DNA of 64,000 nucleotides from Tubiluchus corallicola (GCA_030141605.1 JAQGDQ010000218.1:1-64000); one strand, 5' to 3'; counted from the first letter of the stretch, positions 35,201 to 38,200 are shown. Made by a program: numbers and translations. Notes: generated by a model not told the origin, from the letters alone.

Positions 35201-38200
35201 CTGCCTGTGAAGGAATTGATTCTTAAAATGTAAGATGTTTGATAAGCTCCAAGTACATGAATCAATTAAGTTATGCTGCTTTTATGTGCATGGCTGTAGT
35301 CTCAGAGTCTCAGGAGACTGGCAATCACTCTGATTAAAATCATAAAGCGGAATAAAGCAAGATAATGAGTAATACATTAGTGGATTCAGGTTCTTTAAGT
35401 GAGGATAGCAATACATGTGTGGACGTGTTCACAAGTACAAGAAAAAGTGTCAGTTATTAATAATGATGTTATTGTGGGTAGTAACGTTGCCAAAAAGTTA
35501 TAGCAGGATGATTAGTGCCACGTACAAATTCTGTTGCTGTAGGTAATACTTTCGTCAGCGCGTCATTGAGAATTTGAAGGAGCCGCTATGAACGCATCAG
35601 TTATCATGAGCTTTCTAGGGTCACACCGACCACCATATCGAACACGTAGTTGTCTGGTTTTAAGGATGCTGGCAGTTTTGTTAGAAATAAATCGGTGAAG
35701 TTTTTTCAGCAAGTTTCATGTTTGCTAACCACGAATTTAATCTTTGTAAGCAAGAGTAAATGCATGATTTTTATTTCCATGGCTTCTAAGAAAGAAGTCA
35801 GACAAAAGGAAGCCAAGTCTAGCAAGGAGTCAAACATGAAGCCGTCCCTTGGCACTCAAAAGTTACCTACGAAAGTGCCAAATGTGAAACCCTCGAGCAG
35901 TCAGAAGTTATTGACCAAGCAGTCTAGTTCAAAGTTTAAAGAACCGAGTACATTAACAAATGGGCCTGCTAAAGCAGTACTAGGTGAAGTGCCTAAAGAT
36001 GATGCAAATTCTTTGGAGGATTCATTGCCATCAGACAACACTAAACAGGAAAATGTGAAGGTGCTACCTAAAATTAACACCAATGTCCGGAGAGAGCGAT
36101 CTGGGAGTCGATCATCGGTGATCTCCGACACTTCTAAATCCAGCAACGACAGCGGTCGAGCATCGTTGTATGGAAGGTGCTGTCTTGTCTGTGATTCTCA
36201 GTTCCGTTTATCTGGAAAGAAAGGCTACAGTATCTTTGATACAAATCAAGACATAAACAATCCTGTTGTGCACAATTTAACCGAACGCCTGACAAAAATA
36301 CTTGGTGTCAGTGTAACGCCAAGTAGTATTTGGACAGATAAAATATGCATGCAGTGTGCATGGCAACTAGCGAAGATGCAGTCACTAGCAAAAAATATTG
36401 CTGACTTTCGGACTAGTTTCATGAGTTCAGCTGAAAAAGAGGGAATAGAAAGAGATACGTTAAAACTTGATATCAATATAACAGAAGATGATATTTTGAA
36501 GGAGTACTGTCTCGCTGATGATAAGGCATGTTTTATTTATATTTTTGTCTTACACTTATTTCATTTCTGGTTTTCAGCTATAGGTGGCACACCAAATGTG
36601 TATGTACAAAAAACCTGCGTATGGAATTTTTATTATAATTACATAAATTTTTCCTAACTTAATTTGAAAAACTAATGATTATTGTAAGTTATTGTATGTA
36701 GGCCTTAATGTTATTGTCTTAACAAGATTTCTTGAGTAGAGCCATCAATTCAAATTTTCATATAAAATTTAAAATGAATTTCTGATGAATTGAATGTTAC
36801 TGTCAGTTTTGGTTTTAATACAATGCCTTGCAATAGTGAAATTTTTTACACTGAAGACATTGTTGGCATTTAAGTCAATATTGTTTTCTGCAAATTCTAA
36901 AACAACTTCTTATTGTAAACTCAATACTGAGTGGTAAATGTATACTTGGCACACTACTGTACATCTTTCTTAAATTACATGTACTGCCTTCACCTGACGT
37001 TTATTTATTGATTTTTTTACCTATGACATATTGTGTATTGTATGGGCTGGATGAGTAACTCACTTGGGGCAATATGACAGATGTGTTTTAAACAATTTAT
37101 GCAAGGCTACAATAGCTACAGTTGTTCATTTGCTAGTAGGGATATGGTTGATGATCATGGTGGTGTTTTGATTCTTGGAGTTTTGATGGATATTGTGCAG
37201 TTTTTAGATGTAAACTCACTGTTATATTTCAGCAGAGTGCTTTGTGTGCAATCATACTTGTGTTTATTTTCATAGTTCACTTATTTATCTTTAGTTGCCA
37301 ATGTAAAATTTTGTGATTTTCGTCAATGAAGGTGACAGTTTGCTAATTTTCTGAAGAGGTGGAAAAGTAAATTAGTCATTCAACTTCTCAAATAATACAA
37401 ACTGTTATTTTGGTCTTGTGCTAGTATTTTAGCAGTAATTAGTTTCCTTTTTTTGCTTAGCTTCAGAGTGCTACTGAGGCGCTAGCTTCTCGTTTGGAGA
37501 ACACAGAGAAGCATCTCCGCATGACGGAGGAGGATCATAGCCAGGATCTAGAGAGTGCCCTATTACGTCTTGAAGAAGAGCAACAGAGGTAAATATATCA
37601 AGTTAAGTGAGATGCTGGTTCTCCTAGTTTGTGTTATTAGCCCAATAATGTGACTTTATATAATAAGTATAGATGTTTAATTTTTTAGCCTTTAGCGAGT
37701 TATTAGAGAAATAAATGGTTATTATTAAAAGTTTCAACAAAAGCATTTTGTTACTTTGTAACTGTTAGCCTTCATGTTTTGTAGAGCATTTTTATTTAAT
37801 AAAATGAATAAAAGTTGAAGCTTATGAATTTACCTCGAAATCATGCTTCAGTAGTGTTATAATTAAGCCTGCTGTGGCCTTTTAAGATTTCTACTAAGGT
37901 TTGCAGACAAGTCTAATTTGGCAATGACTAGCTGGATCAATGGAACAAATTACCTGCAATTTAATTATTCGTATTTGAACAAAATTATGTACACGAGATA
38001 GAAAGCAACTGTGTTATCTGACGAGGCATCGTAGTGAACGATTATACACTTGGGAACATAGGATTGTTTTAGGCCAGTGGAGGCACAGTTGAAAAAAGCC
38101 ATTGTTCATCAGTGATTTTGTAATAAGCACCAACTTTGTGTTTAAGTTTGTCATTACTTTTTTATTTTTTTAAATATGAACCATTTTGATTGTATTCTTA

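Follow-up and report, generated by a model that had tools for sequence, protein, structure and literature searches.

What does it mean that a long open reading frame lies, on the coding strand, inside a large intron of the gene for rootletin, the fibre protein that anchors cilia? The question is raised by a stretch of 64,000 nucleotides of animal DNA from Tubiluchus corallicola (GCA_030141605.1 JAQGDQ010000218.1:1-64000, about 33% GC; this whole stretch is called the window), in which the rootletin gene occupies the plus strand from about 20.3 kb to the end. One of its introns, 7.45 kb long, contains a stop-to-stop frame (35650-36657, plus strand, 335 aa, stop TAA at 36655-36657) that encodes a zinc finger resembling a ZAD (short for zinc-finger-associated domain). 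We think it reasonably likely that 35779-36525 within this frame is an alternative first coding exon of rootletin, which a GC donor would splice in phase 0 to the exon at 37461. We judge the locus to be a real and apparently conserved hidden exon, and with it probably a new isoform type of a known protein.

That 35779-36525 is a real coding stretch is supported by several properties of the frame. Only one stop-free run in the window, over all six frames, is longer (452, 335, 333, 156 codons and so on), and the intron contains no other frame of more than 101 aa among the 64 frames of at least 40 aa listed. The cysteine pairs of CLVC-x51-CMQC at 36181-36357 are the sole match to C-x2-C-x(35-65)-C-x2-C in six frames of the 64 kb, and this pattern, YSIF, LTERLTKILGVSV and KICMQCAWQL..FR, by which a preliminary description had characterized the frame, are all present in it. 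A codon model trained on 17 rootletin exons together with a neighbouring gene that we take to be POFUT2-like yields 35779-36528 as the maximal-scoring segment, and training on the POFUT2-like gene only yields 35782-36528. This segment extends from an in-frame ATG at 35779 (TCC ATG G, reading MASK), which the preliminary description had not mentioned, to one codon beyond the AAG/GC donor. The best change points of the T content are found at 35787 and 36528, the latter being the best single one within 36001-36657, so that the frame indeed turns intron-like right after AAG/GCATGT, as had been claimed. For the 23 codons of 35710-35778, which lie between a splice acceptor and the ATG, the score is -0.62 bits per codon (GC 0.30), and for the 43 codons that would be read through after the donor it is -0.84, with an intron baseline of -0.40 on average (sd 0.27, 507 windows). 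The basic linker encoded at 35779-36180 has no Pfam family.

The host gene is identified by the Pfam family Rootletin (PF15035), of which positions 1-187 are matched in order over five exons, with coiled-coil exons following. Two of the five exceed the cut-off of 36 bits (59.8 and 61.9 bits), and the three others match in order. RNA contigs from a relative (run X2; 19 differences in 250 nt of one exon) splice rootletin exons together, including 30009 to 37461 over a 7451-nt GT-AG intron (joint at 30007-37459, cut +2). Counting two exons that are inferred at 20328-20486 and 21236-21352, the canonical head upstream of exon 37461 comprises 204 residues. The 16 internal rootletin exons that could be measured are 84-252 nt long, and the shortest intron seen in the gene has about 115 nt. 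One X2 contig starts exactly at the first base of exon 28764, perhaps because this exon has several alternative partners upstream; the head exons before it lie outside this contig. A second run, X1, covers the intron, with a summed depth of 1.4-3.0 over the ZAD exon and 938-1399 at 30368-31301; such depth is no copy number and was not used as evidence.

At its 3' end the coding stretch meets a candidate donor of high quality. AAG/GCATGT at 36525/36526 lies in phase 0, and exon 37461, which reads LQSATEAL, is the next recognized coding exon on the plus strand and begins in the same phase, so that the in-frame junction proposed earlier is confirmed as far as the phases are concerned. Scored with matrices from the rootletin gene's own exons (18 acceptors), in which the donor dinucleotide is ignored, the site reaches 5.39, ranks 2 among the 742 GT/GC sites of the intron and exceeds 13 of the 17 own donors in a leave-one-out comparison. 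GC-AG introns account for about 0.8% of protein-coding splice sites, and for human and mouse an enrichment among first introns is described (PMC7242645).

A homologue argues that both borders of this coding stretch have been kept. When 1.84 billion representatives were searched in full with HMMER, four hits came up, and three of them (P0002-P0004) were set aside, being unrelated repeat proteins that matched in part. This leaves one homologue, P0001, which is a free ORF of 156 aa from a 3639-nt contig and is 42% identical (E 2e-21). It also starts with MASK, its linker is about 95 residues shorter than that of the window, and all four cysteines and the helix pattern are kept. At the C-terminus its K-A-G-T-stop aligns without gaps to the window's K/A-C, and the second intron-side codon has in both cases a central G, which corresponds to position +5 of a donor. 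Judged from composition, the shared start has a rough chance probability of 0.0007 and the shared end one of 0.002, both computed post hoc, after the match had been seen. The ending of P0001 is what a gene caller would give if it read through a conserved AAG/GC donor, and judging from the sequences this donor appears to be conserved. Among candidates of similar length, 1 of 1078 was related, namely P0001 alone, and two scans of metagenome contigs each gave 106 pattern matches and 0 relatives.

At the 5' end, the acceptor TTTTTTCAG ends at 35709, also in phase 0, and its use together with donor 36525 would give 816 nt. The preliminary description had considered such an in-frame cassette, joined from 30009 to 35710 and from 36525 to 37461, which would place 272 extra residues midway through the Rootletin domain. 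The acceptor ranks 3 of 427 and the frame is open from 35650, and to this extent the idea holds. However, 35710-35778 scores as intron-like and the homologue's first residues are MASK, and for these two reasons it is more probable that the protein begins with this exon, in place of the normal head. A cassette would moreover exceed the range of the measured internal exons, it would split the Pfam Rootletin domain between positions 50 and 54, and the order of acceptor, short leader and ATG found at the ZAD exon recurs at the canonical first coding exon. We thus regard the cassette as quite improbable. The region directly upstream of the acceptor, 35401-35700, lies at the 97.7th percentile of the window bins in CpG content (median 4); it has no Rfam match and no second copy within the window, and the rest of the intron likewise has no Rfam match. 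A reading of two half-sites at 35479-35492 as an RFX X-box was rejected, as the window contains 46 half-sites and no full box is near.

The same homologue can also be taken to indicate that the domain is made on its own, by a nested gene or short transcript on the same strand whose product would be a free dimerization module without the rootletin rod. This could come about by read-through to the stop at 36657, by a terminal exon at 36584 or 36702, or by an end after 37461-37588. P0001 is indeed a free ORF, none of 1240 longer candidates (437-2000 aa) carries the domain in a word-based search, strong acceptor-like sites follow 52, 58 and 176 nt past the donor, the window contains other compact or single-exon genes, and four polyadenylation hexamers lie within 37710-37807. 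However, the 43 read-through codons score below the intron average and are missing from P0001, an intron of 52-58 nt would undercut the shortest seen in the gene, and the empty search among longer proteins says little, because it was limited to 2000 aa and a true rootletin exon also remained unmatched in it (0 of 61). In addition, neither AATAAA nor ATTAAA occurs in 36526-37460 (2.3 expected, P about 0.1), which weakly favours splicing onward. A ZAD-only product seems unlikely to us; if it were real, the locus would hold a conserved nested micro-gene, which is less striking and still unannotated.

Concerning the identity of the domain, zf-AD (PF07776) is the best Pfam family for every query that contains it (at best E 3.5e-4, 21.2 bits, profile positions 1-71 of 75). 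The comparison with this profile had been suggested as a check, and it returned the expected family at the top with a score below the cut-off. A scan of the 64-kb window in six frames gave no C2H2 pattern, although fingers that are split by introns or lie outside the window would escape such a scan; this agrees with the earlier statement that no C2H2 array or transposase follows. As zf-AD is the top family, its score is below the cut-off and C2H2 fingers are not seen, ZAD-like is the right label, and not ZAD-C2H2 factor. Zinc binding by the four cysteines at 36181-36357, which are invariant between window and P0001, is predicted from their pattern. In an Atlas feature search, 20 of the 30 hits were zf-AD clusters (the best at 0.93, with 196 of 256 features shared), and a 139-aa cluster without a name followed at 0.90. 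Foldseek placed the ZAD of M1BP (7po9) at rank 1 over the full length, with a weak match (E 0.57, TM 0.38), and that of Pita (7pok) at rank 14 of 25 (E 8). A PDB sequence search gave one match, which is not a ZAD (E 1.5), and VIA-align wide searches with both weak models had no ZAD among the matches listed (best Z 5.0 and 3.3), which is uninformative.

Lower in the Atlas search, RAG1_imp_bd (0.81; the family is on 32-33% of the members in those clusters) and THAP/zf-AD (0.80) clusters were found, and ZADs resemble the ZFa module at the N-termini of RAG1-like and Chapaev proteins (bioRxiv 10.64898/2026.01.24.700457). Together with a nested inverted-repeat element in the same intron (30508-31984), this could point to a decayed or unexpressed transposon fragment, namely the zinc finger from the N-terminus of an element of RAG1-like, Chapaev or THAP type. 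The frame is intact, however, and shares its start, four cysteines and end with a homologue of 42% identity; conservation extends to just these four cysteines, and a second zinc module is not seen. Exon capture had been proposed earlier, and direct evidence for a capture from a mobile element was not obtained: the 25 longest of 46 inverted-repeat pairs include none that flanks the exon, and the window contains neither a second copy nor a frame of transposase size. A decayed fragment is thus very improbable, and an ancient mobile origin of the ZAD exon is possible and locally unsupported.

The preliminary description had also called for modelling of a dimer. With two copies and two zinc ions, the predicted homodimer reaches a score of 0.51, as compared with 0.01 for the best of three controls, with a pLDDT of at least 78 and agreement between runs in at least 73% of the contacts. 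In benchmarks the mark applied was reached, for microbes, by 21 of the 30 solved homodimers and by none of the 23 monomers, and by 17 of 29 homodimers (7 of 16 from animals) and 0 of 30 monomers from eukaryotes. The predicted contacts (73 with 73; 80-83 with 48 and 56-58; 76 with 9-10) imply that the long helices run antiparallel, and they are similar to the interface of CG2712 (PMC7913770). ZAD-type homodimerization is thereby predicted; as ZAD dimers have already been solved, the pass may be recall, and it shows likeness and not binding.

On the reading that 35779-36525 starts the protein, acceptor 35709 would be fed by a promoter or untranslated leader that lies within the CpG-rich stretch 35401-35700 or upstream of it; given the matching layout at the canonical first coding exon, a shared leader exon could alternatively feed this acceptor, and the same protein would result. 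Translation would start at ATG 35779, and donor 36525 would be spliced to exon 37461. In the resulting isoform the 204-residue head, which includes Rootletin positions 1-50, would be swapped for 249 residues that comprise the basic linker, the ZAD and a spacer of 35 residues, and Rootletin positions 54-187 and the entire coiled-coil rod would be retained. A self-pairing ZAD would likely either hold together both chains of a single rod or connect one rod to another, the spacer being long enough for each, and the likely role of the isoform would thus be to clamp or cross-link rootletin N-termini in those cells that use the internal promoter. The nuclear tethering that had been suggested has no direct evidence, and the basic linker is the sole hint of it; a docking of rootlets to the nucleus via nesprin 1-alpha is known (PMC8435291).

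A number of observations weigh against this assignment. The X2 run bypasses the ZAD exon, so that at least one transcript pool skips it, and the junction 36525-37461 occurs in no read or contig, X2 being the one spliced run available; its contigs, which indicate presence only, leave 35043-37043 uncovered at a likeness of 85% and also of 80%. The isoform would lose the first 50 of 188 Rootletin profile positions, and in the fly, rootletin has one protein form, whose conserved N-terminal domain is required for rootlet assembly and not for basal-body localization (PMC4621839). The codon signal is mainly one of amino-acid composition, with a synonymous-only score of about 0 in the exon. The donor-like site of rank 1 in the intron, 30231 (CAG/GCATGT, also GC), has no recognized exon and lies 221 nt past the canonical donor, which indicates that such donor scores arise by chance. 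Of the 41 AG sites after the donor, acceptor-like 36577, 36583, 36701 and 37432 score above the true acceptor 37460. The zf-AD scores of the window (21.2 bits) and of P0001 (19.2 bits) are under the curated cut-off of 28, and two AlphaFold models, each from a different sequence, are weak (pLDDT 54.8 and 58.5), their helices lying where expected. The K-A-G-T end of P0001 would also be compatible with a phase-1 GT donor, and that P0001 has a donor of its own and belongs to a rootletin gene is presumed.

Table 1. Elements of the rootletin gene around the ZAD-bearing intron, with the basis of each assignment.
Position	Strand	Feature	Basis
20328-20486	+	Inferred first coding exon, canonical rootletin head, 53 aa	ATG 20328, acceptor near 20288; open frame, GT donor, codon score; outside RNA contigs
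21236-21352	+	Presumed exon of the canonical head, 39 aa	AG/GT borders, phase 0, codon score; outside RNA contigs
28764-29015	+	Canonical rootletin exon, Pfam Rootletin positions 1-25	Profile match; X2 spliced contig
29926-30009	+	Canonical rootletin exon, Pfam Rootletin positions 27-50	GT donor joined to 37461 in X2, ZAD exon skipped
35401-35700	+	CpG-rich stretch, candidate for an internal promoter or an untranslated leader	12 CpG in 300 nt
35690-35709	+	Strong splice acceptor, likely to untranslated leader exon	Rank 3 of 427 AG sites of the intron
35710-35778	+	Likely 5' untranslated part of exon	Frame open, intron-like codon score
35779-36180	+	Start codon (ATG 35779, MASK) and basic linker of 134 aa, rich in Ser and Lys	Net charge +12; start of coding segment; MASK common to P0001
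36181-36420	+	ZAD-like zinc finger	C-x2-C-x51-C-x2-C, then short helix, long C-terminal amphipathic helix
36421-36525	+	Acidic 35-aa spacer, exon end ...DDK	Aligns with P0001, ungapped from DD to K-A
36526-37460	+	Predicted 935-nt phase-0 GC-AG intron	Donor rank; switch in coding signal and T content at donor
37461-37588	+	Shared rootletin exon, Pfam Rootletin positions 54-83	Profile match; spliced in X2
38518-38683, 39102-39293	+	Shared rootletin exons, Pfam Rootletin positions 86-139 and 139-187	Profile matches; X2 joints

Further features of the window were seen. The ZAD-bearing intron contains MITE-like inverted repeats at 30508-31984, which are nested (arms 30508-30577/31909-31984 and 30623-30654/31105-31136), and in one X1 contig 30529 is joined to 31985, pointing to an allele or copy that lacks the inverted-repeat element. 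In a downstream rootletin intron, an inverted copy of about 100 nt (51101-51200, minus strand) is 85% identical to the rootletin exon 48527-48646 and could pair with this exon in the pre-mRNA. Directly upstream of rootletin lies an intronless short-chain dehydrogenase ORF of 333 aa (16833-17834, plus strand). The gene presumed to be POFUT2-like is an intronless O-fucosyltransferase ORF on the minus strand (7537-8895; Pfam O-FucT, E 7e-48, a frame of 452 codons), and a C-terminal exon of a Ras-family GTPase, which we take to be Rab9-like, is found at 5582-6031 (plus strand, end RRCCA). At 10301-11400 on the minus strand, two frames resemble, by eye, broken reverse-transcriptase (LINE-like) pieces; one of them was scanned and matched no Pfam family.

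ZADs are described at the N-termini of C2H2 proteins, with dimerization as their one evident function (PMC7913770), and fewer than 10 are counted in the crustaceans studied and one in vertebrates (PMC7913770; PMC12649048). The domain described here shares with the ZADs of insect ZAD-C2H2 proteins and of human ZNF276 the four invariant cysteines in two C-x2-C pairs and, as predicted, a short helix followed by a long C-terminal one (PF07776; PMC7913770, PMC12649048). Its predicted interface, made of the residue after the first cysteine region and of both helices, is like that of the CG2712 and Grauzone ZADs. Unlike in ZAD-C2H2 proteins, the window holds no C2H2 array, the profile score is below the cut-off, a basic linker of 134 aa precedes the domain, and the predicted partner is a cytoskeletal coiled coil and not a DNA-binding array. 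The ZFa module of the RAG1/RAG1-like NZD and of the Chapaev Chapa domain has a single-zinc core with two helices that is described as locally ZAD-like (bioRxiv 10.64898/2026.01.24.700457). In contrast to these domains, the exon has no second zinc module or transposase core, and NZD is described as non-dimerizing, whereas the ZAD-like domain is predicted to be dimeric.

Alternative N-termini of coiled-coil proteins offer the nearest precedent for the design. Myomegalin (PDE4DIP), a centrosomal coiled-coil protein, has in its EB-MMG form an alternative N-terminus that is encoded by a single exon (PMC3575658, PMC13678657). The host gene is unrelated, and the EB-MMG head has SxIP/SxLP motifs, which were not found in the ZAD exon. 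The EB-MMG head begins with two cysteine pairs and has a Pfam family of its own, and no Pfam family of this kind was listed for the ZAD exon. For Drosophila Root, three mRNAs are described that differ in the 5' UTR (untranslated region) only and encode one protein (PMC4621839); a ZAD-headed form did not appear in the passages or searches used here. A full-text literature search gave no paper with both rootletin and ZAD and none with myomegalin and ZAD. Literature searches on rootletin isoforms and related subjects had nothing on the topic by title among the matches listed, and passages from PMC4489026 add nothing on isoforms.

If 35779-36525 is indeed a first coding exon of rootletin, a domain that has been described as a dimerizer of C2H2 chromatin proteins (PMC7913770) would be placed on a cytoskeletal polymer. 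It would also represent a natural head-swap at the N-terminus of rootletin, for which it is debated whether it is globular, and how it relates to striations and membrane contacts; in a model from mouse, the N-terminal coiled-coil region has no self-association and is aligned with membrane-contacting bands (PMC11623930). A conserved isoform would in that case have been concealed from annotation by its GC donor. It is tempting to go further, although we consider this rather doubtful, and to propose that a lineage of animals has a second, ZAD-headed rootletin, long kept behind a GC donor that predictors miss, whose antiparallel dimer would link rods end to end or across neighbours, and that such animals may build bipolar or cross-braced fibres, unlike the polar rootlets.

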